Part shown: positions 8,584 to 55,965 of the stretch, in pieces
Layout of the letters: each line of letters starts with the position of its first letter
How positions within the stretch are numbered: the first letter of the stretch is position 1
Assembly (NCBI GenBank): GCA_001780955.1
Contig: MFJR01000007.1
Span: forward strand, 75,053 to 139,052
Direction of reading: 5' to 3'
Source of the DNA: Candidatus Gottesmanbacteria bacterium RIFCSPLOWO2_01_FULL_39_12b
GTDB taxonomy: Bacteria; Patescibacteriota; Microgenomatia; 2-02-FULL-39-11
DNA length: 64,000 bases
The notes under the pieces: model-generated
Seen by the model: only the letters and a program-made list of their open reading frames with translations
Database searches by the model: none
Told to the model about the DNA's origin: nothing
Position numbers and translations under genes: made by a program

Positions 8584-9705
8584 ATGAAGATAGGAATTGA
8601 TATCAGCATGCTGGCATACACAGGAAGTGGGGTAGCAACATACACCTATAACTTAGCAAAGAACTTGCTAATATATGATAAGAAAAATGAATATATTCTC
8701 TTCTACAGCTCATTTAGAAAGCCAAGGGGTTTTTATTACCTGATAGAATTGGAGAGACTGGGAGGGAAAATAATTAACCTCATCCTTCCGCATACATTTC
8801 TCAAATTATGCTGGAATAAATTTAGTTTGCTTCCTGTTGAGCGCTTTATAGGTAAAGTCGACGTTTTTCATTCTTCTGATTATCTTAGACCACCTTTATT
8901 TAAGAATACTTTAGGAATTACGACGATTCATGATCTGACCTGGAAAATATTCCCTGAATTTCATACCAAAGAAATAATAGAAGCTCATGAAAATAAACTG
9001 GAAAAGACAGTAATCTTTGGTGATATAATTATCGTTGATTCTTATAACACTAAAAAAGATCTTATTAAATATTATCCTCAATTGCACCCAAAAAATATTT
9101 TCGTTATCTATCCCGGAGTCGATAATAAGTTTAAACCCATTAAAGATGAGCAGTTAGTAAAAAAGAAATTGACTAAGTATGGTATTGATACCAGAAATAG
9201 ATTTTTGCTCTATGTTGGAGCAATAGAACCGCGTAAAAATTTAGTTACCGCCATAAAGTTATATTACGAGTTGATAAAAGACAGAAGCTATTCCGATTTT
9301 AATTTTATTATAGTCGGCCGGGCTGGTTGGAAAAACGAAGAGGTTTTCCAAACAATCAATAATTTAAAATTAACTGATAAAGTGAAGATTATTGGCTTTG
9401 TTGAGGATCAAGATCTGCCATATATTTATAACGCGGCGCAGGTTTTTATTTATCTATCAAAATACGAAGGATTTGGATTGCCGCCTCTGGAAGCAGGCAA
9501 ATGCGGGATTCCTTCCCTGATTTACCTTAATTCTTCGCTTCAGGAAATTTTTCCTTCCGATTATCCGTTTGCCCAAAAAGGTAGCGAATTGGAAACTTTA
9601 ATTGATTTAATTAAAATACGGTACAAACCGTATCAAAAACATTTGGAAAAATTTAGCTGGAAATCTTACTGCGATATATATCTAGATATCGTCAAAAGTC
9701 ATTGA
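8584..9705 (+). CDS. GT4 family glycosyltransferase
   Basis: YEGFGLPPLEAGKCGIPS plus an N-terminal GT-B domain. Its 3' end overlaps the convergent gene by 7 bp. Confidence 0.8.
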   Translation: MKIGIDISMLAYTGSGVATYTYNLAKNLLIYDKKNEYILFYSSFRKPRGFYYLIELERLGGKIINLILPHTFLKLCWNKFSLLPVERFIGKVDVFHSSDYLRPPLFKNTLGITTIHDLTWKIFPEFHTKEIIEAHENKLEKTVIFGDIIIVDSYNTKKDLIKYYPQLHPKNIFVIYPGVDNKFKPIKDEQLVKKKLTKYGIDTRNRFLLYVGAIEPRKNLVTAIKLYYELIKDRSYSDFNFIIVGRAGWKNEEVFQTINNLKLTDKVKIIGFVEDQDLPYIYNAAQVFIYLSKYEGFGLPPLEAGKCGIPSLIYLNSSLQEIFPSDYPFAQKGSELETLIDLIKIRYKPYQKHLEKFSWKSYCDIYLDIVKSH

Positions 9706-11915
9706 AATTTTATCCACCGGAAATTCACAGCCAGATCTCGATTATCCAGACGACTTAATACCTGCGACGGTTTATAAGTATTTGCGTAAGTAAATCTTAT
9801 TTGATGGACATCTTTTGATATACCGTTTGGGATAGGCAAGTCATATTGTTGCCATTTTGTTGAAAGTAGTTTAGTTGCTAATAGTTTTCCGTCAATAAAG
9901 ACTGTAATTGTTTGCGGCTCTGCAAGAGTTTGCGCTTCAAATGAAAGCTTTTGATAATCATTATTCTTCGCTACCAATCTTAAGGTTGACTCTTTTCCTT
10001 GCGTCCACCTATTGGCACTTTCTTTCACACTCCAGCCGGTTAGGAGTAAACTGTCCTCAGCTTCGCTTTTTCCTAAAGTAATGCTTGAAAGGTTTTCTGA
10101 TCGATCAAGGAGACAAGAAGTACTATCACAGAGTCTTCCCATGAGATAATATGGATTTTCCCAGACGATATTATTTAGTAAAATTTTTGGGGAATTGTAT
10201 ATAATTGACACCTTTGGTATTAGAACAAGACTATTATCTGGTATTATTTTTTTTGTTTTGTCATATTGATAAGGTGAGTAAACAGGGAGCGGATACAAAA
10301 AATATTCAGTCCAAATTTGTCTCCAGTAGCTTTCTAAACCGGAAATAGCCTGATCTGTATAAATCAATTCTTTCAAATTCTTTAGATTGTGAATTTCACC
10401 AAGAGAGATAAGAGATCTGTCAACAATAATGCGTTCTTTGATAAAACGCCGGTTTAGCTTGACAGCAAAAAGAATCTCTAAAGAAAGTAGAATCGTAAGA
10501 ATTCCCATTAAGAGTTTCCTTTTTTTGCTTAAATATTCCAGTAATCCGATAGAGAAAAGTACGATGAAAAATGGAAGAGAATAGGTGAGTGATCTATTAT
10601 ATGCAAAGAAATTATGATGTAAAATCGCTGTCCATGTAAAAAAGAAACTATAAAGAGCTAAAAAACTTACTGCCAGTAATTTATATCTTATAGTAAGAAA
10701 TCCCTTCAGGATAATAAATAAGGTAAGAAGGCTTAATATAGAAGCTGCAATTAAACGCATAGGTTCCATCGCGTGAATACTGTAAAATCCCATTGCTTCA
10801 AAAGGATTAGCATAGGGAATTTTGGTTCGAAATAGTGCCCATCCAATTGGATCGTCAATTTTTGAGGCTTGTATGAAATCAACAACGAAAGACTTTACTA
10901 TGGAAATAGAAGCTGTAATTGCAATAATGATACATATCCTAATTACGGGCAATATTAGTTTTACGCTTTTTTTCAAAAGAGAATAAAGTATTATAAATAA
11001 GATTAGCGGGGGGATAATAAGTATTACGGCTTCGTGATAGGCAAAGTAAAAAACAGTTGTAGTAAATCCAATGATATAATCAAATCTGGTAAAGTTTTTT
11101 TTGAAAGGTTCTGAAGAAGAAAAATATGAAAAGAGAAAAATCAGCAAGAAAAGTTCAACACCCCAGAAAAAAACTTGACCGAAAAAATCATGATATAACA
11201 TATACAGGAGATTAGAATTGAACATAAACAGAAAGGTCGATAAGATAAGACCTAAAATTTTTGGTTTATAGAGGGTTGAAAACAGGATATAAATAAGTGG
11301 AATGGTTAAACCGAATAAAATGGTCTGAAATAAATACGTGTATTGATATCCCTTTATTTGGAAAATGTTGAGGAAGAAGGACGAAAGTAAAGGGGTACCC
11401 CACCTAAATCCACGAAATAATAAATTTCCAGTGACTTCATCTGTTGGTTTTAGATCGATTACTTTTGTCTGAAAATACTCAAAAATTGAATGGTTAACCA
11501 GATATTCAGGTGTTTGTGCGTATACAATAACATCATTATTTCCCATTGAAATAGTTGTGAGTATTTTGTCATTACGTATAAGTGGAGACAAATTGAAAAC
11601 AATACTTGTGGCAATAAGTAAACCAATCAATATATCCTCCTTCAAACGAAAATTATATCGTAATTTCTTCTTCCAGAATGCGTAAAAATTCAAAAAAAGC
11701 AAAAATCCTATAAGATATGGACAAATCTGATTTACCGAAAGACCAGCCAGGCTAAAAATAGTAAGAAAAAATATGAGAAAAACGACTGTAAACCACGGGG
11801 TAAGCCAAAAGGTATAAGGATGCAATTGCTTTGGAGCTAACAGCAAGGTAAGTCCGAAGCCCAAAAAGAATAAAATGAAAATAGTTAGGATTGAATATAG
11901 AAATATTAGAATCAT
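9699..11915 (-). CDS. Large polytopic membrane protein, paralog family 1 member a: ~500 aa TM domain plus a ~230 aa C-terminal extracytoplasmic domain. Candidate GT-C glycosyltransferase or polymerase, unassigned family
   Basis: 738 aa. N-terminus MILIFLYSILTIFILFFLGFGL...WLTPWF and first-loop motif GNNDVIVYA. C-terminal block LLLTGWSVKESANRWTQGKESTLRL...YKPSQVLSRLDNRDLAVNFRWI. Clear paralog of 11925-14144 and 14152-16362. Confidence 0.6.
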   Translation of the reverse strand: MILIFLYSILTIFILFFLGFGLTLLLAPKQLHPYTFWLTPWFTVVFLIFFLTIFSLAGLSVNQICPYLIGFLLFLNFYAFWKKKLRYNFRLKEDILIGLLIATSIVFNLSPLIRNDKILTTISMGNNDVIVYAQTPEYLVNHSIFEYFQTKVIDLKPTDEVTGNLLFRGFRWGTPLLSSFFLNIFQIKGYQYTYLFQTILFGLTIPLIYILFSTLYKPKILGLILSTFLFMFNSNLLYMLYHDFFGQVFFWGVELFLLIFLFSYFSSSEPFKKNFTRFDYIIGFTTTVFYFAYHEAVILIIPPLILFIILYSLLKKSVKLILPVIRICIIIAITASISIVKSFVVDFIQASKIDDPIGWALFRTKIPYANPFEAMGFYSIHAMEPMRLIAASILSLLTLFIILKGFLTIRYKLLAVSFLALYSFFFTWTAILHHNFFAYNRSLTYSLPFFIVLFSIGLLEYLSKKRKLLMGILTILLSLEILFAVKLNRRFIKERIIVDRSLISLGEIHNLKNLKELIYTDQAISGLESYWRQIWTEYFLYPLPVYSPYQYDKTKKIIPDNSLVLIPKVSIIYNSPKILLNNIVWENPYYLMGRLCDSTSCLLDRSENLSSITLGKSEAEDSLLLTGWSVKESANRWTQGKESTLRLVAKNNDYQKLSFEAQTLAEPQTITVFIDGKLLATKLLSTKWQQYDLPIPNGISKDVHQIRFTYANTYKPSQVLSRLDNRDLAVNFRWIKFQ

Positions 11916-11924
11916 TGGTAAATA

Positions 11925-14144
11925 TCAATTCTGTGTAAGCCAAATCCTACGAAAATTCAAAGCGAGATCTCTTGTATCCTGAGTTTTTAAGATTTCAGAC
12001 GGCTTATATGAATATGAGTATGTGAGACGTATTTGGTGAACACCTTTAGGTATTCCTTCCGGAATGTAGAAAGTATACTTTGACCATTGAGTCAAGGCCT
12101 GTTTTGTTCCTAATAGTTTTCCATCAAAATAGACAGTAACAGTTTGTGGCTCCTTTAGTGTTTGAGCTTCAAAAGATACTTGATTAAAGCCAGAATTCCT
12201 AGTAATTAATCGAAGAGTTGATTCTTCCCCTGTCGCCCATCTATTCGTCATCTCTCTTACGCTCCAGCCGGTTAGAAGTAAACTATCCTCTGCTTCACTT
12301 ACCCCTAAAGTAATACTTGAAAGGTTTTCAGGTCGATCAAGAAGACATTCTGTGCTGTTACAGATTCTTCCCAGTTTATAATATGCATTTTCCCAGACGG
12401 TTGATTTAAGGAGTATTTGAGGAGGTTTAAACCATGGTGTAGGTTTAGACAGCAGTATAAGACTATTATCAGGAATTCTATTTTCGAAAGGAGTTACGAT
12501 AGAAGTTAATGAGGGTAATGGTTTACCATTATACAGGAAATAACTTGTCCATATTCGTTTCCACAGAGGAATATTATCATCAATTAATCCCTCCATAAAT
12601 ATCGGTTCGGAAAAAGAATTCGAAGAGGGTAATTCTTGCAGAGAGATTAACGATTTATCAACCACAAGATGTTCACTGCGAAATCTCTTGTTGAGTTTAA
12701 TAGCAGAAAAAAGTTCTAAAATGATAATACCGGCTAAAATATATCTTTTCAGTAAAATACGGTTTTTGACGATCTGTGTAATACCGATAGAAAATAAGAC
12801 AAGAATAAGCGGTAAATTAAAGGTGAGGCTTCTGTTATAAGCCCAAAAATTTGGATAAATAAAGGAATAGAGGAAGAGAATAAAAGAATAAAAAGCTATG
12901 TAGCAAAAGAGAAAAAGTCGATTTTTTGACTTAAATAAACCATAAAAAATGATTACGATCGTTCCTAAGCTCAAAAGAATAGCAATAAAGATCGGAAGAG
13001 GTTCAAAAGAGTGAATACTATATAAACCTATCATTTCAAATGGATTTGCATACGGAATGCTATTGCGGAAAAGTGTCCATCCGATAGGCTGATTTGGATT
13101 TGCGCCAATAGATTGATAATAATTAACAATAATAGATTTTATGATAGTAGAGAAACTGGTTAGACCTGTAATTAACATTACTTTAATTAGTGACCAAAAA
13201 TTACCCGATTTGCCATTTTTGAGGAGTAGTTGAATTACATAGAACAATAAAAGAGGGAATAAAACAAAAATGGCACCTTCATGATAGGAAAAAAATAGAA
13301 CACTAATACTTATTCCCAAGGTAATATCATATAAATTTATTAATTTAGTTTTAGTTTTAGCCCCAAAGATATAAGCAATTAAAAATATTAAAATGAATAA
13401 CTCAAGACCCCAATACAATATTTGTCCTGAGAAGTTATGGTAAAGTATATAAAGTAGATTTGAATTGAATGCCGTAACGGTCAGAATCAATACTAGAGAT
13501 ATTAGTGATGGCCTAAAAATGATTTTGGCTAAGATATACCCTAAGGGTAACATCAGAGAATAAATAACCGCGTGAAAAATTGATATATACTGATAAGCTT
13601 TTAAATTAAAAATCATTTGAAAAAATGAGATGACGATTGGAGGTCCCCATCTGTTTCTTTCGACTAATAAATCACCGACTTCAGTTGGTATATTTCCTTT
13701 AACACTATCAGTTATTGGGTGCTTTATAAGATAATCGGAATTGACTGCATAATCGATAATATCATTATTTCCCAGAGACAGGCTTGTCGGATATCGGTAA
13801 TACCTAAATAAAGGAGACAGGTTAGATAAGATACTAATGATTATTATTGCTCCGATGATAAAATCTTCTTTTAAATTGATTTTAAATATTGTTTTATTTT
13901 TAATAAATACATAAAAATTGGTAAATGATAATAGAACAAATAATGGAGCTATTATTTTTGAAATACTGAAACCCATCCGTCCAAAAATCACCAGAATAAA
14001 TATCAATATTACAATTGCATACCACGGTGTGAGCCAAAGCCTGTGTTTTTTAAGAGCTCGGGGCGTTAACAGGTATCCTAGTCCGTATCCTGAATAAAAC
14101 AGGATAAAAATTGTAGCAAAAGAATAAAATAGTATCGATATCAT
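11925..14144 (-). CDS. Large polytopic membrane protein, paralog family 1 member b
   Basis: 739 aa. MISILFYSFATIFILFYSGYGL...WLTPWY, SLGNNDIIDYA. C-terminus LLLTGWSVREMTNRWATGEESTLRL...YKPSEILKTQDTRDLALNFRRI. Confidence 0.6.
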   Translation of the reverse strand: MISILFYSFATIFILFYSGYGLGYLLTPRALKKHRLWLTPWYAIVILIFILVIFGRMGFSISKIIAPLFVLLSFTNFYVFIKNKTIFKINLKEDFIIGAIIIISILSNLSPLFRYYRYPTSLSLGNNDIIDYAVNSDYLIKHPITDSVKGNIPTEVGDLLVERNRWGPPIVISFFQMIFNLKAYQYISIFHAVIYSLMLPLGYILAKIIFRPSLISLVLILTVTAFNSNLLYILYHNFSGQILYWGLELFILIFLIAYIFGAKTKTKLINLYDITLGISISVLFFSYHEGAIFVLFPLLLFYVIQLLLKNGKSGNFWSLIKVMLITGLTSFSTIIKSIIVNYYQSIGANPNQPIGWTLFRNSIPYANPFEMIGLYSIHSFEPLPIFIAILLSLGTIVIIFYGLFKSKNRLFLFCYIAFYSFILFLYSFIYPNFWAYNRSLTFNLPLILVLFSIGITQIVKNRILLKRYILAGIIILELFSAIKLNKRFRSEHLVVDKSLISLQELPSSNSFSEPIFMEGLIDDNIPLWKRIWTSYFLYNGKPLPSLTSIVTPFENRIPDNSLILLSKPTPWFKPPQILLKSTVWENAYYKLGRICNSTECLLDRPENLSSITLGVSEAEDSLLLTGWSVREMTNRWATGEESTLRLITRNSGFNQVSFEAQTLKEPQTVTVYFDGKLLGTKQALTQWSKYTFYIPEGIPKGVHQIRLTYSYSYKPSEILKTQDTRDLALNFRRIWLTQN

Positions 14145-14151
14145 AGCGAGG

Positions 14152-16362
14152 CTACGTTTTTATGAATCGTATCCATCTGAAATTCACCGCAAGATCCCGT
14201 GCATCTTGATTTTTAAGTATCTCAGAAGGTTTATACGTGTGTGTGTATTGAAAGCGTACAGTATGTATCCCCTGGGATATTCCTCCGGGAATCTGAAATG
14301 TATAAGTTGACCAGTTCGTTGTGAGCGGTTGTGTTCCGGCAAACGTATCATCAATAGAAACACTGATAGTTTGTGGTTCAGAAAGGCTATATGCCTGGAA
14401 GGCTAACTGTGTATACCACTCTTTCGTAACAAGTCGAAGAGTAGATTCTTTACCAGTTGACCATCTGCTGGTTGACTCTTTGCCGCTCCAACCCGAAATG
14501 AGAAGACTATCTTCAAAAGTTGTTTCTCCCATAGTAACACCAGAGAGATTTTCCGGTCTATCCAAAAGGCACTCTCGGCTGTTACAGAGGCGTCCTAAAA
14601 CATAATATTTATTTTCCCAGATGAGAGGAGATTTGAGGAGGATTTGTGGGGGATTGGACCGTGGTGCGGGTTTAGAAAGAAGAATAAGACTGTTATCCTG
14701 AGGTTTTTTTTGGGATTTTTTTGGATGCAGGAAATATTCTGTCCATAATGCTTTCCATAAAGGAATTTCTCCAATGAGTTCGTACTCAGTATACATTGGT
14801 TCATTTAATAAACCTAAGTCTTTTATATTTAATTGGGTAAGTGATACAAAAGATTGGTTGACTGATACATATTCCTGATTCATTCGTTTATTTAATTTTA
14901 CAGCAGAAAATAGTACTAAACTGATAAGTGCAATAGCTATGACCGTGGTGGATTTCTTTTTTATCAAAAAAAATTCGTTTAAACCGATAGTAAAAAGAAC
15001 TAATATGAATGGTAAGGTATATGTCACTGCCCGATAATAATCAAAAAAATTATGTTGAACTAGAGACGTCCAATAATACAAAAACACATAGACGATCAAA
15101 AAACTGGTTAAAAGAAGTCTGTTTTTAGATTTCAGGAGACCAAAGAGTATGGTTATGACGACTAATAAACTTACCAATATCGCAAGAATAACCGGTAGAG
15201 GTTCGAAGGCGTGCATGCTATAGAAACCCATCATTTCAAATGGATTTGGATACGGCACGTTGTTTCTAAATGCCTGCCAGCCAATAACTGCATTTTTATC
15301 CGTGTAATTCTTAAGAAATCGAGTGATAGTTTCATTGGCCCCAAAGAAAAAAGGGATAGAGCTGGTAATAATGGTAATAATAAATATTTTAGATAAGGCC
15401 GGCCAGTAATCGAAAGTAAATTTTTTTAAAAAAAATCGTAACAGAACAAATACCGCCAATGGACCAATAACAAAAATTCCTCCATAGTAATATGAATAAT
15501 ATATAACTGCTAATGTTATACCGAGGATAATATCGTATAGAGCCACCTCTCTTTTTGCTGGTTCGTTTGAACCAAAATATAAAAAGAGAAATATAAGAAA
15601 AAAAGTATAAAGCCCGAGGAATAAAATATGGCCAAAAAAGTTGTGGTAAAGAATATACAGTAAATTGACATTAAAAGTAGCGAATATAAGGATTGAGAAT
15701 AAGCTAAAGAGAGTTGGTTTATATAGGATTTTCAGAAGAATAAATACTAAAGGAATGTGTAAGGCATATAATATTACTTGGGATAAGTACGTGTATTGAT
15801 ATCCCTGCAGGTGGAAAAGGTTTTGAAAAAAAGCAGCAAAAATTGGAGGTCCCCAACGGTAGATATTGTGAAACATATCATATACATTCGCATTTGCATT
15901 TAATACATTCTGACGCAGTAATGCAACATTTTTATACATAAGGGTATCTATAATATAATCAGAACTGGCTGCATAATTTACCGCATCATTATTTCCTAGA
16001 GATACTGTGGTGAGAAATTTTTCGTATTTGATCAAAGACATAAGATTAAAGAAAATACTTACCAGAACAAAACAAGCAATAATCACATCTTCCTTATTTA
16101 CGCGAGGGCCCTTAGTTTTTAAAAAAACGTATATGTTAAGTAATAGAAGAGAACCGATGATAATAGGTGATGCCTGGCGAACTGTAAATCCAAGCAGATT
16201 AAGAATAATGAGGATAAATACAAGAAAGATTATAGTAAACCAGGGCGAAAGCCAAAGTGCGTATAATTGAAGTTTTTTTGGTAGAAAAAAGTGAGTTATG
16301 CCATATCCCAAGAAGAATAAAACCAAAATTGTCGCGAGTGAATAGAAAAATATCGAAATCAT
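14152..16362 (-). CDS. Large polytopic membrane protein, paralog family 1 member c
   Basis: 736 aa. MISIFFYSLATILVLFFLGYGI...WLSPWF, SLGNNDAVNYA. C-terminus LLISGWSGKESTSRWSTGKESTLRL...YKPSEILKNQDARDLAVNFRWI. Confidence 0.6.
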   Translation of the reverse strand: MISIFFYSLATILVLFFLGYGITHFFLPKKLQLYALWLSPWFTIIFLVFILIILNLLGFTVRQASPIIIGSLLLLNIYVFLKTKGPRVNKEDVIIACFVLVSIFFNLMSLIKYEKFLTTVSLGNNDAVNYAASSDYIIDTLMYKNVALLRQNVLNANANVYDMFHNIYRWGPPIFAAFFQNLFHLQGYQYTYLSQVILYALHIPLVFILLKILYKPTLFSLFSILIFATFNVNLLYILYHNFFGHILFLGLYTFFLIFLFLYFGSNEPAKREVALYDIILGITLAVIYYSYYYGGIFVIGPLAVFVLLRFFLKKFTFDYWPALSKIFIITIITSSIPFFFGANETITRFLKNYTDKNAVIGWQAFRNNVPYPNPFEMMGFYSMHAFEPLPVILAILVSLLVVITILFGLLKSKNRLLLTSFLIVYVFLYYWTSLVQHNFFDYYRAVTYTLPFILVLFTIGLNEFFLIKKKSTTVIAIALISLVLFSAVKLNKRMNQEYVSVNQSFVSLTQLNIKDLGLLNEPMYTEYELIGEIPLWKALWTEYFLHPKKSQKKPQDNSLILLSKPAPRSNPPQILLKSPLIWENKYYVLGRLCNSRECLLDRPENLSGVTMGETTFEDSLLISGWSGKESTSRWSTGKESTLRLVTKEWYTQLAFQAYSLSEPQTISVSIDDTFAGTQPLTTNWSTYTFQIPGGISQGIHTVRFQYTHTYKPSEILKNQDARDLAVNFRWIRFIKT

Positions 16363-18170
16363 GGAAGGTCATCTATTCTTTTCATAGGAGTAATTGTACC
16401 TAATTGATAATAATCATTCTCCCAAATTTTATTTGTATATATTAACTTCTTCCCTTCTCGCTCCAGATAATTTTTTTCAGCAAGAACTAATCTGATATTC
16501 GCTACATTATCTTTTTCTGTTACAAGGTTTTGCAAAGTAACAATATCTCTATCCATTAAAAAATATTCACGCCACAGTCTTTTCCACAGATTGTCTTCTC
16601 CAAGATACACATCAGAGGTAAAAAATGGTTCTATGATGTCTTTCTTCTTATTCAGTTGCGTGAGTGAAATAAGTGATTTATCAACAACTTGCGCATGCCA
16701 ATATAATTGATAGAGAGTTCTCTGTGCTGACCGAAAAGATAAAAAAAGAAAAAGTACAATAATAGTGAACTTTATCATTTTATTTTTTATCAGTGAGAAT
16801 AGAAAGCACATCCCTATACTAAAAAGAGCAGAATAAAGAAAAAGAGTATAGGTGATTGCTCGATGGAAACTAAAAAAATTTGGGAAAATCCATCTTAAAC
16901 TTACATAAAATGGTATCCATGCTAAAAGAAGGGAGAGAATAAAAAGTTTCTTTCTTAAATTTATAATTCCCAGTAACCATATAACCGCTATAGGAAAACC
17001 AAAAATGATATCAAGGAAGACAGGTAAATCTTTGGAGTGATAAAGGTTGTAAAATCCTGTCATATCGAGCGGGGAAGCAAAAGGAATATGTTCCCACCCG
17101 ATAAAGGAGCTTTGTGTCGAGGAAGTAATTATCTTCACATTTTGCCCAATAGCAGTGCCTGCTGTTATAGGGTTAATAACCAAAGTCAAGAGAAGGATTT
17201 TGAGAAAATATATTCCGTGTATCGGATTCCTATCTTTAAGGAGGCTCAAAATTCCAAAAACAAGAAGCGGCAGGATGGCAAAAATGAGTCCTTCAGGATA
17301 AATTGTTGTTATTGCAGATAATGCAAGAGCGATTAATAAATCATACGAATTAAAGTTCCTCAGATCTTTTTTTTCTTCAGAAATATATGCATGAAAGAGG
17401 ATGACCACAAGAATAAAAATCCCGGTGAAAATAAACTGAGCGTAGAAAACGTTATAGAGCATGTACAGGAGAGTAGCATTTAAGGAAAAAGTAATAAAAG
17501 AAAAAGAGAGAATATGCATATTGTGCTTTTGGCTTAATCGTTTTGCCAATATGTATACCAGCGGAAAAGAAAAAGTGAAAAAGATAGTGATAATGGTAGA
17601 ATAAATCTGATAGGATTTAAGCCTGAAAACGTATGAAAAAAAGCTTAACAGGATGGGGCTTCCCCAACGAAAACCTGCATGAAGAAGGTCTCCTGTTGCT
17701 CCAAGATAGGGTTTATAATGCTCAAACGTTCCTCCTTCCAAGACGGTGTGGTTGATAAGGAAATCTCCAACGGGGGTATAAGAAAGAGGATCGAGATTGC
17801 TTAAGGAAATAGTAGTTGGGAACCCAACTTTTGTTAACAGAGGAAATAAATTAAAGAAAAGAGTAAATCCAACAAGAAGAGTCGTAAAAAGAAATTCGAG
17901 GGTCAAAAAAGGAAGGGTCTTTCGCGCAATGAGACTAGCAATAAATAAAATGCCGGCACAAGCAAGAATAAAATATGCACTTTTTGCAACAGGAATTTGG
18001 GCAAGATTAAAAATAATACTCAGAACTGCAATAAGAATAGTTCCCACCCATGGAGTAAACCAAATAGCGTCTTTTCGTAGATTTTTGGGAATAAGCAAAG
18101 CTGTAAATCCATATCCAACAAAAAATAAAACAGCAATGATTTTTACTAAAAGTATAATAATGTCAATCAT
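16359..18170 (-). CDS. Polytopic membrane protein, paralog family 1 member d, lacking the C-terminal soluble domain
   Basis: 603 aa. MIDIIILLVKIIAVLFFVGYGF...WFTPWV, SLSNLDPLSYT. It ends soon after the TM region. ATGA overlap with member c. Confidence 0.55.
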   Translation of the reverse strand: MIDIIILLVKIIAVLFFVGYGFTALLIPKNLRKDAIWFTPWVGTILIAVLSIIFNLAQIPVAKSAYFILACAGILFIASLIARKTLPFLTLEFLFTTLLVGFTLFFNLFPLLTKVGFPTTISLSNLDPLSYTPVGDFLINHTVLEGGTFEHYKPYLGATGDLLHAGFRWGSPILLSFFSYVFRLKSYQIYSTIITIFFTFSFPLVYILAKRLSQKHNMHILSFSFITFSLNATLLYMLYNVFYAQFIFTGIFILVVILFHAYISEEKKDLRNFNSYDLLIALALSAITTIYPEGLIFAILPLLVFGILSLLKDRNPIHGIYFLKILLLTLVINPITAGTAIGQNVKIITSSTQSSFIGWEHIPFASPLDMTGFYNLYHSKDLPVFLDIIFGFPIAVIWLLGIINLRKKLFILSLLLAWIPFYVSLRWIFPNFFSFHRAITYTLFLYSALFSIGMCFLFSLIKNKMIKFTIIVLFLFLSFRSAQRTLYQLYWHAQVVDKSLISLTQLNKKKDIIEPFFTSDVYLGEDNLWKRLWREYFLMDRDIVTLQNLVTEKDNVANIRLVLAEKNYLEREGKKLIYTNKIWENDYYQLGTITPMKRIDDLP

Positions 18171-20416
18171 TATTTTATTTCCTCCAAAGAGATATGCGTA
18201 AATTTTGCAGAAAGTAATCTATTATCAAAATTGCCAGGGATTACTTCAGAAGGTCGATAGTCGGAAGAGAAAAGAAAATAGACAAAATTAATACCTTCAC
18301 TTAGTTCTTGATTGATTGGTATAGAGAAATTTTCTAAATTAGTAGTTAGTTTTATTTCTGTAATCTTTTTTTTGTTTAAATATATTTTCGTTTTTAGATC
18401 TTTATAAAAAGCCGCAGCTCGAAAATTCAAGTTAAATTTACGTGGTTTTAGCACTTTGAACATAATTGAAGCGTTCTTCCAAGACCAACGAAAACCCTCT
18501 TCTCTAACATTCCACCCGGCACCTAAAAACATATCATCATCTAAAGATCCGATATCAATAGCTAAATATTCCTTTTTATCCGGATTTCTTTGCCAAAGAG
18601 AAAAATGGTTATCTGTAAGCGTTTTATTAAATCCTAAGCTGGTGAGTCCTGCGGAAATAGTGCCAGCAAAGGTTCGATTATCATCAAGAAGAAAATACTT
18701 CAAATCAAGAAAATTAATGCTGTCAATACTTCTCTTATAATCCAATGTTTTCCAGCGGGATAGGTCACTTTTATCAACTCCTCCATTATATTCCAAATTA
18801 TCATCCATTAATCTTCCCATATATCCCAAAAACGGATTTCTTTTATAATAATCCGATTTAAAATAAGGTATTCTTCCCATATATCCAGCTAAAACGGGTT
18901 TTTTATGTATATTTTGTCCTTCTACAAACTCCAATCCATTACTATTACCAAAATAAGTAAATCCGTCTCTTACTACAGATGGAGCCTCCATAACAGTTAT
19001 GTTACTAGGATCGTTTGCAATAGCTTTATATGCATTATATGGAATATATCGCTGAGGCGGAACAGGTATTTTGAAATAATGGTCGAGAAAAAAAATAGCT
19101 ATGAAAATAAAGAAAAAAATAGTTTTTATTTTTTTCCCTTTACCCGATAACAAATAGTCAAATAAATACGCGCAGATAATATAGGAAAAAAATATGAAAG
19201 CTACAATTAGACGACCCGGAATTCTAATGTTTGCCATAAAAGGAAGATAATGGAAGATAACAAACGGTAATGGGATAACTATTCGGATTTCATCATCCAG
19301 GGTAAATCCCCATTTACCTAATATATGAAGAAATGGTCCAAGAGTGAGAATCCAAAAAACTCCGGAAATATATAAATATGGTCTAATAAGCAGATAAAGC
19401 TTAGGTGGAAGTTTATTTTTTAATTTTAGTATAAATAAAGTGATAAAAGTAAAAATTATAAAAAGTCCCGGGTAACTAAAATTTTCAAAAATTCGCGAAG
19501 CAAATTTGAAATGAGTACCCCAGAAACCCGCTATTGGACTTAGAAAGTAGCTATAAATACTCGGGATAAAAAATCCAAACAGATCAGAAGAAAATTCTAT
19601 TGCGCCTCCCCACCCGTTAGTTTTAGGTAGCCCTTCAAATAGGTATGTTTCATATAGGACTTTGAGCCATGGAATAAGAAAGGTTACAATCAAAAGAATA
19701 CTAAGAAGTATATATTTCAGATTATCTTTGACTACATGAAGAAAAGATTTTTGTGAGAATATAAGACCATAAATTGCAAATAGAGAAATAGATAAGACAA
19801 TCATTATGAAATAATATAAATTTAAATAAAGAGAGAGAACAAAAAATAATGCAGTCCCAGCTGAAAATAGAAATTTGGTCTTTTGGTCAAATTCTTTGAA
19901 TAATGAATACCCACAAAGGAAAAACCAGGGAAATACATAAGTTGACATGAAATTTAAATGACCCACACGTGGCGTGAGAAATGTCATATAACCGAACGCC
20001 AATCCTAATAAGTATGAAGTCATTTGCGAAATTCCCAGTTTCCGCAGTAACAGATACATTCCAATGTTGGAAAATATTAAGCCTGCAGCGACTATAATGG
20101 CTAAAGATTGGTGCTCCGAAAAGAAAGGCCTAAGTAATACAAAATAAAATCCATTTCCTGAATCTGTAGAAGTAAAATCTAATCCGAAAGGATACAAGAC
20201 TGCGTTTGAGTGTGCAAAGGGATTTTTCCCACTCATAATGTTCTGATAGACTTTATCCATTGCCCATTCCGCAACAAACACCTCTCCATATCTTGCTCCT
20301 ACTTTTGAATTATCAAAAAAAATTTCTGCCCAAAAAGAATGAAAAAATACAAGATTCACTAAAAAATATCCGCAAAGGAAAAAAATAGAGGTATATTTGT
20401 TTAGAATTTGTTTCAT
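18170..20416 (-). CDS. Large polytopic membrane protein, paralog family 2 member a, with a C-terminal extracytoplasmic domain related to that of family 1
   Basis: 748 aa. Motifs NPFAHSNAVLYPFGLDF, GWGGAIEFSSDLFGFFIPS, PLPFVIFHYLPFMANIRIPGR. C-terminus GAGWNVREEGFRWSW...YRPSEVIPGNFDNRLLSAKF. Confidence 0.6.
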   Translation of the reverse strand: MKQILNKYTSIFFLCGYFLVNLVFFHSFWAEIFFDNSKVGARYGEVFVAEWAMDKVYQNIMSGKNPFAHSNAVLYPFGLDFTSTDSGNGFYFVLLRPFFSEHQSLAIIVAAGLIFSNIGMYLLLRKLGISQMTSYLLGLAFGYMTFLTPRVGHLNFMSTYVFPWFFLCGYSLFKEFDQKTKFLFSAGTALFFVLSLYLNLYYFIMIVLSISLFAIYGLIFSQKSFLHVVKDNLKYILLSILLIVTFLIPWLKVLYETYLFEGLPKTNGWGGAIEFSSDLFGFFIPSIYSYFLSPIAGFWGTHFKFASRIFENFSYPGLFIIFTFITLFILKLKNKLPPKLYLLIRPYLYISGVFWILTLGPFLHILGKWGFTLDDEIRIVIPLPFVIFHYLPFMANIRIPGRLIVAFIFFSYIICAYLFDYLLSGKGKKIKTIFFFIFIAIFFLDHYFKIPVPPQRYIPYNAYKAIANDPSNITVMEAPSVVRDGFTYFGNSNGLEFVEGQNIHKKPVLAGYMGRIPYFKSDYYKRNPFLGYMGRLMDDNLEYNGGVDKSDLSRWKTLDYKRSIDSINFLDLKYFLLDDNRTFAGTISAGLTSLGFNKTLTDNHFSLWQRNPDKKEYLAIDIGSLDDDMFLGAGWNVREEGFRWSWKNASIMFKVLKPRKFNLNFRAAAFYKDLKTKIYLNKKKITEIKLTTNLENFSIPINQELSEGINFVYFLFSSDYRPSEVIPGNFDNRLLSAKFTHISLEEIK

Positions 20417-20447
20417 AATATGGTAAAAATTACCTTATTGTATTACA

Positions 20448-22307
20448 TTAATCTATAAATTTCCTCTCATATAAATCATAGACCCCATCATTCATGATCT
20501 TTTTGAAATCTACTTTTGAGATTATAGAAGATATTGCCGGGGTATATTTTTCATTATTTTTAAGGATTATATATTTCACATTTAAACTATTTAGTTCTTG
20601 GAGGACTAGAGAAGAAGTTATAGCGAATGGTATTATATTCGGCTCCTTTGGTTTTTCTGAATAAGGATTATAATTCCCTTTATCTATTATCTTCGCTATA
20701 TAATTTATAAATCTCATATTCTTGTAACCAATAAATACTTCTTCTGGTACTCGGGCAAGATATCCGCCGATGATCGGTTTTCCGTGAATAAGCTGTCCAT
20801 ACATAGGGAGTATTCCATGGACAAAACCAATATAATTAAAACCATCTCTTACTGTAAAAGGAACATCTAATACTGTCTTTTGGTCATTTTGATTTTTTAA
20901 ATACTGGTAAATTTTTACAGGGGCATTCTCAACCATCTTTTGGGAAATAGTATAAAATTGATCAAAAAAGAAAATAACAAACAAACATACTAATAAAATT
21001 ATCTGTTTTTTCTTACTTATCCTTGTCAATACAAAATTAATCACATAAGCAGTGACAATGCAGGCAAAAAATACGAAAGCCGGAGTAAATCTGGCGGTGG
21101 CTCTAATAGTTGATAAGCCTGGAATATAATGAAGTAATAAAAAGGGGAGAGGTAAGACAACGGAGACACCATCAAGATTGATAAACCAGCGATTAAATAT
21201 TTTCAAAAATGGACCCAACATCAAGATATAAAAAAAACTACTAACTATAAAATAGGGTTTTATCAGTTGCCATAATTTTTGAGGAAATCTATTGAAGATT
21301 TTCAATATAGTAACAGTTAGATAAATCAATACGATGATGATTCCTGGATAACTAAATCTTTCCAGGCTGTTAAGGAAAAAGTATTGATATTTTACAAATA
21401 ACGGAACAATTGAGGTGATTTTATTGAAAATAATATTATACAGAGGATTAAATTCACTCGGTGTTATAAAACTTGCCAAGTCAGATGATAAAGTTATTGA
21501 TCCTCCAAATCCGGGAGTTTTAACTAGTCCTTGGGTTTTGATTAAATTATAAACTGATAATATCCAGGGAATAAGGAAAAAAATTGCTGAAATAATAGAT
21601 AAAAACAAATAGGTGACATTTCTTGATAAAAGTTTTAAAAACTCCTTTCTGTCAGTAAAAAACCAGTATCCTGCAGAAAATAACAATCCAAGCACTATTG
21701 TAAAAAAGTAATAGAAATTACTCAAAAGAACCGTTGCCATGCATAATCCTAAAACCAGACAAAAGATAAATCTTTCTATTGTTTTATTTGATTCAAATAA
21801 TTTTTTTAGTGCTATAAATACTAAAGGAAAAAAGTATATAGATATATAAGCATAATGACCCAGAACTCTATGAGATAAAAATGGTGTGAATCCAAAAATT
21901 AAACTAACTAATATTGATAAGTATTGATCGATCTTTAATTTTCTTAGTAATAAATACATAAAAAAATTATTTAAGAAAAATCCAAATAAGATAATAATCA
22001 GTAGAGATTTATGGGAATTAATAAGTGGCCGGAAAATAAAAAACGGTAAAACATAAGCAGTATTGGGATCATTCAGGGAAAAATTAGTAGTAAATGGGTA
22101 TAGAATAGATTTTGTGACAAAAGGATTTTTAAATTGAAGTATATTTTGGTAACTTGTCTCAATTAAATATTCTGTAACGATATTATCACTGACCATTATC
22201 CTATTTCCAAAAAGTTCACCCCAGAGAGAAAAATTAAAAATTAAATTAATAAAAAGGAAAACAAAAATAGGCAATATAAAACGAAGTTTTTTCTTCATTT
22301 TAAGCAT
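20448..22307 (-). CDS. Polytopic membrane protein, paralog family 2 member b, C-terminal domain absent
   Basis: 619 aa. NPFVTKSILYPFTTNF, GFGGSITLSSDLASFITPS, PLPFLLLHYIPGLSTIRATAR. Terminates where member c's C-domain begins. Confidence 0.55.
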   Translation of the reverse strand: MLKMKKKLRFILPIFVFLFINLIFNFSLWGELFGNRIMVSDNIVTEYLIETSYQNILQFKNPFVTKSILYPFTTNFSLNDPNTAYVLPFFIFRPLINSHKSLLIIILFGFFLNNFFMYLLLRKLKIDQYLSILVSLIFGFTPFLSHRVLGHYAYISIYFFPLVFIALKKLFESNKTIERFIFCLVLGLCMATVLLSNFYYFFTIVLGLLFSAGYWFFTDRKEFLKLLSRNVTYLFLSIISAIFFLIPWILSVYNLIKTQGLVKTPGFGGSITLSSDLASFITPSEFNPLYNIIFNKITSIVPLFVKYQYFFLNSLERFSYPGIIIVLIYLTVTILKIFNRFPQKLWQLIKPYFIVSSFFYILMLGPFLKIFNRWFINLDGVSVVLPLPFLLLHYIPGLSTIRATARFTPAFVFFACIVTAYVINFVLTRISKKKQIILLVCLFVIFFFDQFYTISQKMVENAPVKIYQYLKNQNDQKTVLDVPFTVRDGFNYIGFVHGILPMYGQLIHGKPIIGGYLARVPEEVFIGYKNMRFINYIAKIIDKGNYNPYSEKPKEPNIIPFAITSSLVLQELNSLNVKYIILKNNEKYTPAISSIISKVDFKKIMNDGVYDLYERKFID

Positions 22308-22366
22308 TATACTACGAAAATGTCTTAATCCTAGAGAACGAATTAAATCAATTTATTTCAAAATTC

Positions 22367-24625
22367 TCACTCGATTTTTAAAGAATAAAATTTCAGTCCA
22401 AGTTCTCTTTCATCTTTATTGTCAGGAAAAACTGTAGATGGTTTATGAGTTTTTGAGAGTTTAAATGTAATTCTATGTATTTCTGGTTCTAAAGAGTATG
22501 GAACATCTATACGATACACCCCTTTTTGGGAGAGTACTCGTATCTTATCAATATAGACTTCGTCTAGATAAACTTGCACGTACTGTTCATTTTGGAATGA
22601 CTCTGTTTCAAAAATTATCGTTGGTTTTATCCTGTTGATCGTTTTGACAAAGACTGTAGCTATTTTCCCATAAGTCCATCGAAACCCATCTTCCGCAACG
22701 CTAAATCCAGAAACGATAAATAATTCGTCTCCTGTCGTCCCGAAGCGTATATCTGTAAATAGCACTGCGCGCAATTCTCGTTTCAGAAGTATATATGGTG
22801 TCTCGCTTGACACTATTTTATATCCGATTTCTTCAAGTGTTTGTCGTATAAGCTGCGAGTATAGTTCGTCATTCTTAAGAACAACATATTTAATATCTAA
22901 AAAATCTAGTTCTTTCTGCAGAGTTGTCACGTTGGCATTATAAACTGTGACGATCGGGAGAGTCGGCTGCTCCTTATATAGATCGTAGTTGCCTTTATCG
23001 ATTATTTGCGCAGTATGACCGATAAACGGAAGATTAGAATAGTAAGAAAAAATTGATGAATCTACACGAGAAAGGTATCCGCCAATAATCGGCTTATCAT
23101 GTATCAATGTTCCAATGGTGGGAGTATTCGCGTGAATGCTGCCAATATACTTAAAGCCATCCCTTACAGTAAATGGAATTTCCAGAACAGTTGACTTGTC
23201 AGGATCTTTTTTAATATAGTCGTAAATTTTTAGAGGAAGATACTTATCAGATCTTTGAGGTATAAAATATGCTTGATCAATTACCACAACAATAAATAAA
23301 AGTGTAAAAATTGTGAAATAAAATTTTCTATTTAATCTGCTAAACACAAAGGATAATAAATAAGCAGTGACGATAGTGGCGAAGAACACAAAAGCAGATA
23401 TAAATCTTGCTGGGGCTCTTACAGTGGTAAGTCCGGGAAAATAGTGAAGAAGTAGGAATGGTAAAGGAAGAAAAATATGAATTCCTTCATCAAGAGTGAT
23501 AAACCATCTGTTAAATATCTTTAAAAAAGGACCTAAGGTAAGAAGTGCAAAAAATAGACTCGCTAAAAAATGAGGTTTTAATTTATACCATATTTTTTTA
23601 TGTATTTTATTTTTGAAAAGGAAAATTAAGATATATGCAGTAATGATAATCAACCCAGGAGAGACGGACCTGTTATTGTTAAAGAAAAAAGAATTTGCTA
23701 ATTTGGCAAAAAAAATTGACTTACCCCTAATATCGTTCATGATAGATGCATAAAATGGATTATACTCACTTGGCGTGACAAAATTTATCAGATCCGAAGA
23801 TAATTCTATTGCGCCTCCAAAACCGGCTACTTTATATTCTTCATTAAATAAGCGTAGATTTAATACTGTTAAAAACCAAGGAGTAAGGATAACAAAAAAG
23901 GAAAGTAATGAAAGTAGGAGATAGAATACATTCTTTATAATAAATTGATAGAAAATTTGCTTGAAAGATAAAAAGAGATAATAAACACAGTAAAAAAACA
24001 TAGCTAATACGACCATCAGGAAATAATAAGGATTAGCAAAATAAGTTAGAGCCAATAGTATTCCATAGGTTAGAGAATAAATAGATTTTTTGATAGTTGA
24101 GTTTGATTCTAGAAAAAACAAAATATTTATAAATAAGAGAGGAAAGAAGTAGTAAGTAGTATACGTATAGTGTCCTAATATTCTGTATGATAGAAAAGGT
24201 GAAAAAGCAAATATTAGGCTGCAAAATGCAGAAACATAACTCCTTATTTTCAGTTTTCTTAAAAGTAGATACATACATATATTTGCCCAAAATATATTAG
24301 TAAGAACGATAATAAGAGTTGATTGGTGAATATTAAAGAAAGGGCGTAAGATAGTTAATGGAAAAAAATTGATTAACCAAGTATCATCCAATGAGAGATT
24401 TGTTTTAAATGGATAAAAAATACTGTCGGTTATAAAAGGATTCTCAAATTTTAATATCTTTTGATAAGCGTTTTCCGTAAAAAATTCATAATTTATACCA
24501 TCATTGATGCTAATTCTTTGAGGGTAGTAATTTAAAAAAATATCCTGAATAAAAGGTAAATTAAAAATTATAATAAGAAGAATTACTCCAGCAAAAAAGA
24601 GGTATAAAAATTTTTTACTTCCCAT
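22367..24625 (-). CDS. Large polytopic membrane protein, paralog family 2 member c, with C-terminal extracytoplasmic domain
   Basis: 752 aa. NPFITDSIFYPFKTNL, GFGGAIELSSDLINFVTPS, PLPFLLLHYFPGLTTVRAPAR. C-terminus VSGFSVAEDGFRWTYGK...HKPSTVFPDNKDERELGLKF. Confidence 0.6.
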   Translation of the reverse strand: MGSKKFLYLFFAGVILLIIIFNLPFIQDIFLNYYPQRISINDGINYEFFTENAYQKILKFENPFITDSIFYPFKTNLSLDDTWLINFFPLTILRPFFNIHQSTLIIVLTNIFWANICMYLLLRKLKIRSYVSAFCSLIFAFSPFLSYRILGHYTYTTYYFFPLLFINILFFLESNSTIKKSIYSLTYGILLALTYFANPYYFLMVVLAMFFYCVYYLFLSFKQIFYQFIIKNVFYLLLSLLSFFVILTPWFLTVLNLRLFNEEYKVAGFGGAIELSSDLINFVTPSEYNPFYASIMNDIRGKSIFFAKLANSFFFNNNRSVSPGLIIITAYILIFLFKNKIHKKIWYKLKPHFLASLFFALLTLGPFLKIFNRWFITLDEGIHIFLPLPFLLLHYFPGLTTVRAPARFISAFVFFATIVTAYLLSFVFSRLNRKFYFTIFTLLFIVVVIDQAYFIPQRSDKYLPLKIYDYIKKDPDKSTVLEIPFTVRDGFKYIGSIHANTPTIGTLIHDKPIIGGYLSRVDSSIFSYYSNLPFIGHTAQIIDKGNYDLYKEQPTLPIVTVYNANVTTLQKELDFLDIKYVVLKNDELYSQLIRQTLEEIGYKIVSSETPYILLKRELRAVLFTDIRFGTTGDELFIVSGFSVAEDGFRWTYGKIATVFVKTINRIKPTIIFETESFQNEQYVQVYLDEVYIDKIRVLSQKGVYRIDVPYSLEPEIHRITFKLSKTHKPSTVFPDNKDERELGLKFYSLKIE

Positions 24626-24765: not shown

Positions 24766-25416
24766 ATGTATAATAAATGGAGATTACTCCGTGAAATGAA
24801 AAGACGCATTGTTAATCAATTTCTTATCCGGAAGACTTCAAAGAAAAAACATTGTTATCTAAAACTCGGCAATAATGTTTATCTTCCCATTTTATCTGAC
24901 ATTAAGACTGCAGTTACTATTGGCAACGGTACCGGTATAAACGGAAAAATCACTATCATGGGAGGATCAAAGGTTTCCATAGGGAAGTACTGTGCTATTG
25001 GATCGGACGTGAAAATAATTTCCTCTAATCATGATGTACGATATGCGAATTTACAATCTAAGTTTCAACTAGAATATTTTGCAATGAGTTTAGATAGTAC
25101 CAAAGGTGAAGTAAAAATTGGAAATAATGTTTGGATAGCAGATTCTGCAATCATTCTATCGGGAGTAACTATTGGGGATGGAGCAGTTGTTGCGGCAGGG
25201 GCAGTTGTGGTAAAGGACATTCCCCCGTTTTGTATAGCTGCAGGAATTCCCGCTGTGATAAAAAGAGAACGATTCTCAAAAAAGATCGTAGATAAGCTTT
25301 TGGCGATTCAATGGTGGGATTGGGATGAAAAGATGATAAAACGAAATAAAGATTTTTTTACGCTAGATCTCACTAAAAATCCCAATTTTTTACTAGAAAA
25401 GATTATTCATAATTAG
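24766..25416 (+). CDS. Left-handed beta-helix (hexapeptide-repeat) sugar O-acetyltransferase (LacA/NodL/WbbJ-like)
   Basis: IGNNVWIADSAIILSGVTIGDGAVVAAGAVVVKDIPPFCIAAGIPA: typical LbH repeats plus the C-terminal cap. Confidence 0.8.
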   Translation: MYNKWRLLREMKRRIVNQFLIRKTSKKKHCYLKLGNNVYLPILSDIKTAVTIGNGTGINGKITIMGGSKVSIGKYCAIGSDVKIISSNHDVRYANLQSKFQLEYFAMSLDSTKGEVKIGNNVWIADSAIILSGVTIGDGAVVAAGAVVVKDIPPFCIAAGIPAVIKRERFSKKIVDKLLAIQWWDWDEKMIKRNKDFFTLDLTKNPNFLLEKIIHN

Positions 25417-29277: not shown

Positions 29278-29291
29278 ACAGAAATAAAAAA

Positions 29292-30254: not shown

Positions 30255-30258
30255 AAAT

Positions 30259-31221: not shown

Positions 31222-31259
31222 ATATCAATTCAAAGATAATAAAACAAAGAAAAATACCA

Positions 31260-33115: not shown

Positions 33116-33128
33116 AAAACTTAAACCT

Positions 33129-34361: not shown

Positions 34362-34375
34362 AATCTTTCTTTAAT

Positions 34376-35119: not shown

Positions 35120-35120
35120 T

Positions 35121-46419: not shown

Positions 46420-46436
46420 TAGCAAAAGGAGAAATT

Positions 46437-55958: not shown

Positions 55959-55965
55959 TTAAAGA

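Follow-up and report, generated by a model that had tools for sequence, protein, structure and literature searches.

The window analysed here, a stretch of 64,000 nucleotides from Candidatus Gottesmanbacteria bacterium RIFCSPLOWO2_01_FULL_39_12b (contig MFJR01000007.1, positions 75,053 to 139,052), carries at 9699–24625 an array of seven minus-strand genes for large polytopic membrane proteins. The seven proteins, termed G1 to G7 in order of position, are very probably glycosyltransferases of the GT-C fold that act outside the membrane. On balance, they would elaborate extracytoplasmically a glycopolymer exported by an ATP-binding cassette (ABC) transporter, with polyprenyl-phosphate sugars as donors and the polysaccharide as acceptor. 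The source organism is a member of the Patescibacteria, or candidate phyla radiation (CPR; Microgenomates), with a genomic G + C content of about 33%.

All seven open reading frames (ORFs) are intact, 603–752 aa each. Family 1 comprises G1 (9699–11915, 738 aa), G2 (11925–14144, 739 aa), G3 (14152–16362, 736 aa) and G4 (16359–18170, 603 aa). Family 2 comprises G5 (18170–20416, 748 aa, clade B), G6 (20448–22307, 619 aa, clade A) and G7 (22367–24625, 752 aa, clade A). G1, G2, G3, G5 and G7 end in a beta-sandwich resembling a carbohydrate-binding module (CBM), encoded at about 9702–10115, 11928–12344, 14155–14568, 18173–18592 and 22370–22780, respectively; G4 and G6 are without it. G2 and G7 were modelled as representatives of their families. 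The protein records are OGG26693.1 for G2 ('hypothetical protein A2960_00780', 100% identical), OGG26695.1 for G4 and OGG26698.1 for G7. G6 has the lowest G + C content of the array, 28.3% against 31–35%. In the order G7 to G1, the intergenic spacers measure 59, 31, −1 (TAATG), −4 (ATGA), 7 and 9 bp. G1 overlaps a convergent GT4 gene by 7 bp, and 140 bp lie between G7 and a divergent hexapeptide acyltransferase gene. On tight spacing alone, co-transcription of G7 to G1 is plausible; a scan for promoters and terminators gave counts no higher than in shuffled sequence and so no evidence of an operon. Among the seven genes, a clear Shine-Dalgarno sequence (GGAGG) is present at G4 only.

In all-against-all BLASTP, G1–G3 are mutually 45–46% identical (46% for G1 and G2) and G4 is about 31% identical to them (E about 1e-70). 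G5–G7 are mutually 32–46% identical (E 1e-104 to 1e-167). The division into four plus three genes had been proposed in an earlier sequence-only reading of this DNA and is borne out, as are its gene coordinates, its lengths of 600–750 aa, its spacers with ATGA and TAATG overlaps, and its domain of about 500 aa with many transmembrane (TM) helices in each protein. The motifs quoted there are present and conserved in alignments of 54 family-1 sequences (MIxI...GYG...WLxPW; SLGNND..Y) and 59 family-2 sequences (NPF...YPF; GFGGAIxLSSDL; PLPF..HY.P...R). G1 scores E 9e-250 against the hidden Markov model (HMM) of the family-1 core and E 5e-51 against that of the C-domain.

AlphaFold models of both families are of high confidence (pLDDT 90.5 and 91.2, pTM 0.89). 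Both contain the GT-C fold in a polytopic membrane domain; a comparison against GT-C folds had been suggested in the sequence-only reading. By hydropathy and from the models, family 1 has about 14 TM helices (residues 1–491) and family 2 about 11 (residues 1–451), followed after the last helix by a soluble domain. Structural matches of the G7 model are Pmt4 (19.2), STT3B (17.4), AftD (17.3), Pmt2 (16.7), AglB (14.9), PglB (14.8), AftA (14.7) and ArnT (14.6); AftA and AftD are among the best matches of the models. Profiles of the two families align in hhalign with a probability of 99.6%, most strongly over the tail. Residue ~94 of family 1 is placed opposite residue ~8 of family 2, so that family 1 consists of the GT-C core with three extra N-terminal TM helices. 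Judged by profile and modelled fold, the two families are homologous and anciently diverged. The sequence-only reading missed this homology, together with the C-domain described below.

All 54 family-1 sequences have D128, all 59 family-2 sequences have D or E at position 42, and the two positions align with each other in hhalign. Beyond the first TM helix of the core there is a long loop, and each of the two residues opens the first juxtamembrane helix in it. GT-C catalytic bases lie at that site. D128 and D/E42 are therefore regarded as the putative catalytic acidic residue, a hallmark of GT-C enzymes, likened by loop position and profile alignment. The family-invariant residues are all kept in the seven copies: G1 keeps D128, Y132, R165 and the remaining family-1 invariants, and G5 keeps E42, E47, D81, R94, R407, D450 and R488-D489. 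None looks decayed for this reason, and all seven look functional; decayed pseudo-enzymes are ruled out, since every invariant residue is retained in all copies. Topology was predicted by a positive-inside count of lysine and arginine (K/R), with the helices as modelled. In G2, the inner loops contain 11 K/R in 34 residues and the outer loops 1 in 49; in G7 the bias is weaker, 4 in 27 against 4 in 61. By this count the D128 loop, the conserved IGW...PYANPFE loop of G2, the soluble domain after the last TM helix and the tail are predicted to lie outside. The first outer loop of the family-2 model is 68 residues long and contains helices.

Sequence-family assignment is sparse. G6 is the sole copy over a Pfam threshold (YfhO, PF09586; 29.8 bits against a cut-off of 28.5, E 2.7e-7). 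The HMM search of each protein, proposed earlier, thus yields a marginal YfhO match for G6 and, for the other six, no Pfam match at E ≤ 1; NCBIfam matches of the seven are noise. At E ≤ 0.01, YfhO is matched by 4/59 family-2 and 0/54 family-1 members. DUF7657 is matched by 8/59 family-2 members. Family 2 would at best be a marginal outlier of YfhO and family 1 no member of it. Distant family-1 relatives match DUF6541 (E 7e-11), and one of them weakly matches PMT_2 (E 0.006). In UniRef, G2, G4 and G7 are named 'Glycosyltransferase RgtA/B/C/D-like domain-containing protein', and one family-1 homologue carries the NCBI name 'YfhO family protein'. The earlier label of an unassigned family stands in so far as family 1 has no Pfam match in any member (0/54); it is overstated in view of the YfhO match of G6 and of the UniRef names. 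Profile searches with both families over all PDB sequences, EmbA/B/C, AftA, AftB and AftD among them, picked up unrelated proteins at chance level; up to E ≤ 10, no GT-C chain appeared. Family 1 is small: of 1.84 billion cluster representatives, its core profile finds 571 at E ≤ 1e-3 and 112 at E ≤ 1e-30. Family 1 is a candidate new GT-C family for CAZy. Many family-2 homologues bear a precomputed tag for PF19830 (DUF6311), yet a local Pfam hmmscan of the 59 members (E ≤ 0.01) gave none; the mismatch reflects either a discrepancy of version or threshold, or faint hits. No papers on DUF6311, DUF6541, DUF7657 or PF19830 were found in the literature.

The C-terminal domain of about 135 aa is common to G1, G2, G3, G5 and G7, across both families (BLASTP E 1e-10 to 1e-14). 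It is absent from G4, G6 and everywhere else in the window. In the models it folds as a beta-sandwich like that of CBM35 or CBM6. No Pfam CBM family reaches threshold against the tail; the best sub-threshold matches are DUF7024 (E 0.034 in G7; 0.0015 in a relative) and CBM60 (E 0.043). A tail profile search of PDB sequences gave nothing meaningful, and a homologue search for further architectures with the tail alignment gave three fragments only, limited by the search word index. HMMs of the two cores and of the tail were scanned over 26 fetched loci (L numbers), with 16 distinct Patescibacteria-type loci. This census gave one extra architecture, a hexapeptide acyltransferase fused to the same C-terminal beta-sandwich (L001 4435–5472, L005 1238–2287, L009 4828–5880); encoded upstream of the array, it is the orthologue of the window acyltransferase. 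The fusion at L001 4435–5472 has no TM helix and no signal peptide, and the beta-sandwich therefore occurs on a cytoplasmic enzyme too. The acyltransferase of the window (24766–25416) is without it.

The preferred reading is as follows. Cytoplasmic GT4 and GT2 enzymes would build the backbone of a lipid-linked glycopolymer, and the ABC transporter Wzm/Wzt would export it. Three PgfS/ArnC-like GT2 enzymes would load sugars onto polyprenyl phosphate, and a flippase, Wzx-like or another, would move these donors outward. Each GT-C paralog would then transfer a sugar from its polyprenyl-phosphate carrier to a particular position of the polymer, branching or extending it, while the beta-sandwich tail would hold the polymer acceptor. 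The tail-less G4 and G6, of which most loci have one each, may perform priming steps that need no grip on the polymer. The paralogs would differ in acceptor or linkage and would not be redundant.

Candidate genes for these steps lie in the window, all on the plus strand. Wzm, an ABC-2 permease (5679–6461), matches Pfam ABC2_membrane and NCBIfam galactan-export Wzm/RfbD (E 1.6e-22); Wzt, an ATPase (6466–7215), matches Pfam ABC_tran and NCBIfam TagH (1e-58) and galactan Wzt (3e-55). The closest NCBIfam models of the pair are accordingly the mycobacterial galactan exporter and the teichoic-acid exporter TagH. Two cytoplasmic GT4 enzymes (7219–8571, 8584–9705; Pfam Glycos_transf_1) follow, convergent with G1. 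The three GT2 enzymes are found at 35103–36041 (two C-terminal TM helices, at 230–288; PgfS E 5e-61, ArnC 3e-40), 42638–43609 (two C-terminal TM helices; PgfS E 2e-75, ArnC 2.5e-43) and 47228–48205 (two C-terminal TM helices; PgfS E 4e-68, ArnC 1.6e-39). They match PgfS and ArnC over full length. Polyprenyl-phosphate-sugar synthases are built in this way, a GT2 domain with two TM helices at its C-terminal end, and the three are candidates for donor supply. A Wzx/MOP-type flippase (61112–62419; Pfam Polysacc_synt E 1.3e-19; at least eight predicted TM helices) is a candidate transporter of lipid-linked sugar donors or of the repeat unit.

Several points weigh against the reading of a polysaccharide acceptor. 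The window yielded neither an initiating phosphoglycosyltransferase nor an LCP-type ligase. We infer the acceptor from synteny and the CBM-like fold alone. The beta-sandwich, to judge by the acyltransferase fusions, is not intrinsically an extracytoplasmic module; its presence in the cytoplasm would fit a module that recognises one polymer both inside and outside the membrane. PgfS, the closest model of the donor synthases, belongs to a protein O-glycosylation system. The last point leads to the main rival, itself unlikely, in which the seven are protein glycosyltransferases (PMT-, PgfM- or TMTC-like, or like oligosaccharyltransferases) that glycosylate S-layer, pilin or other surface proteins, with paralogs serving different sugars or targets. 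It draws on PgfS being the best match of all three GT2 donor synthases; in the protein glycosylation of S. mutans, PgfS has PgfM1 and PgfM2, both GT-C-type membrane proteins, as partners (PMC5856776, PMC12041528). It is disfavoured by the tails, which resemble polysaccharide-binding CBMs as in Emb, AftD and GT136, and by the synteny of the arrays with the Wzm/Wzt exporter and GT4 in most loci whose flanks were recovered. Nor do the seven proteins match Pfam PMT or STT3, and a WWDYG-type motif occurs in none of them (regular-expression search for WW[DE] or W[WFY]D[YWF]G). An oligosaccharyltransferase (STT3/AglB/PglB, GT66) is ruled out by the missing WWDYG motif and the missing Pfam STT3 match.

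Homologues of both families occur overwhelmingly in metagenome-assembled genomes (MAGs) of Patescibacteria and on metagenome contigs. Of the 16 distinct Patescibacteria-type loci, 14 hold both families, side by side or interleaved, and the remaining two are contig-end fragments with family 1 only. Loci uncut by contig ends hold 3–7 genes per array: three in L001, four in L014 and L015, five in L007 and L010, six in L005 and L011, and seven in L003 and the window. Seven copies are the upper end of the range, tied with L003, and no singular event. Comparison of copy number across related genomes, which the sequence-only reading had recommended, thus shows variation, and its word 'exceptional' is too strong: related Patescibacteria as a rule carry arrays of 3–7 genes from these two families, and tandem GT-C enzymes with CBM tails are known from embCAB/Aft and GT136 (PMC3044687, PMC11127046). 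The ratio of family 1 to family 2 varies (4:3 in the window, 2:4 in L005, 1:2 in L001). Commonly, a locus contains one tail-less family-2 gene, one tail-less family-1 gene and a variable number of tail-bearing copies; the two tail-less genes are directly adjacent in L007, L010 and L014.

In neighbour-joining trees, the tail-less family-1 genes form a single clade, to which no locus contributes more than one full-length copy. G4 groups there with the tail-less genes of L005, L007, L010, L011, L013, L014, L016, L018 and L020, and G1–G3 are dispersed among tail-bearing genes from other genomes. Family 2 divides into at least three clades, two of them represented in the window; G6 groups with tail-less family-2 genes of other genomes. 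Paralogs that are 31–46% identical and stand in clades with genes of other genomes are old and retained, and the same identity and scatter rule out recent tandem amplification. Clades that span genomes would fit distinct jobs. Together with the invariants kept in 7/7 copies, these separate cross-genome clades uphold the earlier proposal of GT-C/YfhO-like extracytoplasmic transferases of diversified specificity. Short ORFs (200–330 aa) within other arrays (L003 9141–10001, L011 9045–10001, L013 4181–5164, L008 4044–4643; none in the window) align with family 1 over its N-terminal TM helices only and do not retain the GNND motif. Truncated paralogs and accessory membrane subunits are both conceivable.

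The pairing of the two families bears on a second rival, which we hold to be quite doubtful. Here the seven would be extracytoplasmic polymerases that build a homo- or heteropolymer de novo from polyprenyl-phosphate monosaccharides, with the ABC-exported product as a short primer and with heteromeric pairs of family 1 and family 2. Emb-type arabinan and Mpt-type mannan synthesis, and the pairs Pmt1-Pmt2 and EmbA-EmbB, are its likenesses. The adjacency of the families in 14/16 loci, the frequent position of a tail-less family-2 gene directly beside a tail-less family-1 gene, and the rank of AftA and AftD among the best structural matches speak for it. Fixed pairs are at odds with the variable family ratio. 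Its distance from branching of an exported polymer is one of degree (extension against branching), not separable by sequence. A third rival, very improbable, takes the array as alternative or redundant copies that diversify a surface antigen, phase- or strain-variable, for escape from phage or host defence. Copy numbers of 3–7 between related genomes can be counted for it, as can the addition of side chains by GT-C enzymes outside the cytoplasm, a classic mechanism of seroconversion (PMC11127046). It sits poorly with paralogs that are old and retained, with copies that are all intact and keep the putative catalytic residues, and with the picture for repeats, invertible elements and slippage tracts, of which none was seen in passing, with no search aimed at them.

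The flanks of the arrays recur as well. A GT4 gene lies immediately downstream of the array in 12/16 loci (L001, L003, L005–L008, L010–L012, L014, L015, L017); the remaining four are cut by contig ends. GT4 is the most constant neighbour of the arrays. Its orthologues, one or both, are mostly 45–57% identical (36–37% for the copies of the 7219 type in L015). Wzm/Wzt orthologues, 53–64% identical, are present in 9 of those 12 loci (L001, L005, L006, L007, L010, L011, L012, L014, L017), that is, in all but L003, L008 and L015. DegT and hexapeptide acyltransferase genes are often present near arrays, and DegT orthologues 67–71% identical adjoin them in L001, L015 and L020. Distant single-copy relatives of family 1 occur in cyanobacteria, Binataceae, Nitrospinales and Verrucomicrobiota; the distant Nitrospinales locus holds family 1, Wzm, Wzt and a family-2-like gene together. 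L008, L014 and L017–L020 are from MAGs titled 'uncultured Gammaproteobacteria bacterium', with typical two-family arrays of the Patescibacteria type that are 40–45% identical to the window genes; these labels are probably wrong. A literature search on Patescibacteria with GT-C, YfhO or glycans gave nothing specific, and the arrays were not found described. A bolder and rather improbable extension of these observations starts from obligate heteromers of family 1 and family 2. Joined by Wzm/Wzt and a single GT4, they would form an envelope system that defines the Microgenomates lineage, and a wall heteropolysaccharide specific to CPR would be polymerised for the most part outside the membrane. 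The polymer would be the main surface structure of host contact for these ultrasmall episymbionts, and the beta-sandwich would be a dedicated module for its recognition, used outside on the GT-C enzymes and inside on a cytoplasmic acyltransferase.

A glycan island of at least 64 kb spans the entire window, with many genes for sugar-nucleotide modification. Upstream of the array the order is GT2, a PTPS_related GT-C-like protein, GT2, GT4, a PIG-V-like GT-C protein, Wzm, Wzt and the two GT4. Downstream lie the hexapeptide-repeat acyltransferase (24766–25416, plus strand, divergent from G7; Pfam Hexapep), a methyltransferase of 607 aa, a DegT-type sugar aminotransferase (27246–28508, minus strand; Pfam DegT E 3.5e-95), WbqC and many sugar-modifying genes. 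Further GT-C-like polytopic proteins are the PTPS_related protein (1022–2674, E 1e-4), the PIG-V-like mannosyltransferase (4487–5650, E 1.5e-7), a GT87 protein (37989–39875, E 1.6e-12) and a protein of 520 aa (58554–60116) that has seven or more TM helices and matches neither Pfam nor NCBIfam. Seven array genes and these four give about 11 candidate extracytoplasmic glycosyltransferases in the window. The 607 aa protein (25413–27236) has a class I methyltransferase domain at residues 72–242 and about 365 further C-terminal residues without assignment. Beside a glycan locus of the ABC-transporter type, it may be a WbdD-like enzyme that terminates the chain or regulates its length. The run 28576–35119 encodes WbqC, two GH130/GH32-like beta-propellers, GNAT, 3-hydroxyacyl-CoA dehydrogenase, an unassigned ORF of 186 aa, thiolase and a methyltransferase. 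The run appears to be an amino-sugar N-acylation cassette, perhaps for a 3-hydroxybutyryl-type group. A thiamine pyrophosphate-dependent enzyme, a 3-dehydroquinate-synthase-like protein, an HpcH-type aldolase and a split transketolase are encoded within 39878–41713, 45322–47231 and 55170–56877. In a glycan locus, this set suggests synthesis of a branched-chain or higher-carbon sugar. The split transketolase pair also adjoins GT-C arrays in L001, L007, L018 and L026.

From seven GT-C enzymes and four more GT-C-like proteins in a glycan island, an elaborate polysaccharide built outside the cytoplasm is predicted. To our knowledge, almost nothing is known of the surface glycans of Patescibacteria, and a 2024 perspective on the biology of the group does not mention glycans (PMC11665869). 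CPR cells spend their lives attached to hosts, presumably with their surface as the interface; an organism with a tiny genome, whose longest assembled contig measures 558 kb, here spends about 15 kb on seven GT-C enzymes. The mechanism is not new and the kind of system is already known, and the 'novel surface-polymer assembly system' offered by the sequence-only reading is not required to explain the data. New are a family 1 without a Pfam model and a two-family array of 3–7 paralogs that recurs throughout Microgenomates beside GT4 and, as a rule, Wzm/Wzt. The finding is of use for annotation, as a marker of the CPR envelope, as a source of possible enzymes for glycoengineering and for GT-C classification; the recurring array with GT4 and, usually, Wzm/Wzt is also a portable gene set for heterologous reconstitution.

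The closest architecture among known systems is given by the published description of GT136. ORF12 of Citrobacter youngae O1/O2 has 11 TM helices and, after the first of them, a periplasmic helical domain with the catalytic Asp; its C-terminal beta-strand CBM binds the unmodified ABC-exported O antigen, on which the enzyme acts after polymerisation, and the system needs a polyprenyl-phosphate-sugar synthase and a flippase (PMC11127046). Family 2 is alike, in architecture only, in its roughly 11 TM helices, helical first outer loop and C-terminal beta-sandwich, and Wzm/Wzt, candidate donor synthases and a candidate flippase are encoded in the window. It differs in that the window donor synthases are GT2 enzymes of the PgfS/ArnC type, whereas those of GT136 are phosphoribose synthases of the UbiA type; the GT136 partner genes, for UbiA-type and MATE proteins, were not found among the annotated ORFs of the window. 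Where GT136 has a single enzyme, the array has seven, of two families, and the organism is a monoderm-like CPR bacterium.

In mycobacteria and corynebacteria, the arabinosyltransferases EmbA/B/C and AftA-D (GT53, GT85, GT89 and others) elaborate the Wzm/Wzt-exported galactan outside the membrane from polyprenyl-phosphate monosaccharide. The embCAB/Aft enzymes resemble the array as tandem paralogous large GT-C membrane enzymes with C-terminal lectin-like CBMs, the C-terminal domain of EmbC being a CBM (PMC3044687), and the galactan exporter is the closest NCBIfam permease model of the window Wzm. The likeness is at the level of fold only, with no sequence similarity detectable in the PDB profile searches. 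The window proteins have 600–750 aa against about 1100–1400 aa, the phylum is another, and no DPPR synthase or DprE genes are present here. ArnT and RgtA-D (GT83-type, PMT_2), glycosyltransferases of lipid A and core, share with the array the UniRef names of G2, G4 and G7 and an ArnC-like donor synthase. They differ in that PMT_2 is matched by none of the seven in a local Pfam scan and in that ArnT is without the extra periplasmic domain and CBM tail. We know of no lipid A synthesis in CPR bacteria.

The YfhO/CsbB/GtcA and GacL systems of Firmicutes are precedents as well (PMC8035078, PMC5836110). In YfhO/CsbB/GtcA, a GT2 enzyme with C-terminal TM helices makes C55-P-sugar, and a GT-C enzyme moves the sugar extracellularly to teichoic acids or wall polysaccharides (PMC5836110, PMC8035078). 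The likeness lies in G6, over the Pfam YfhO threshold, and in the family-1 homologue named for YfhO; the difference lies in arrays of many paralogs in place of single GT-A/GT-C pairs, and a small flippase of the GtrA type was not found in the window. By analogy, the logic proposed for the array, in which GT-C enzymes with polyprenyl-phosphate sugars elaborate an exported polymer outside the membrane, is that of GT136, of mycobacterial Emb/Aft, and of YfhO/CsbB/GtcA and GacL.

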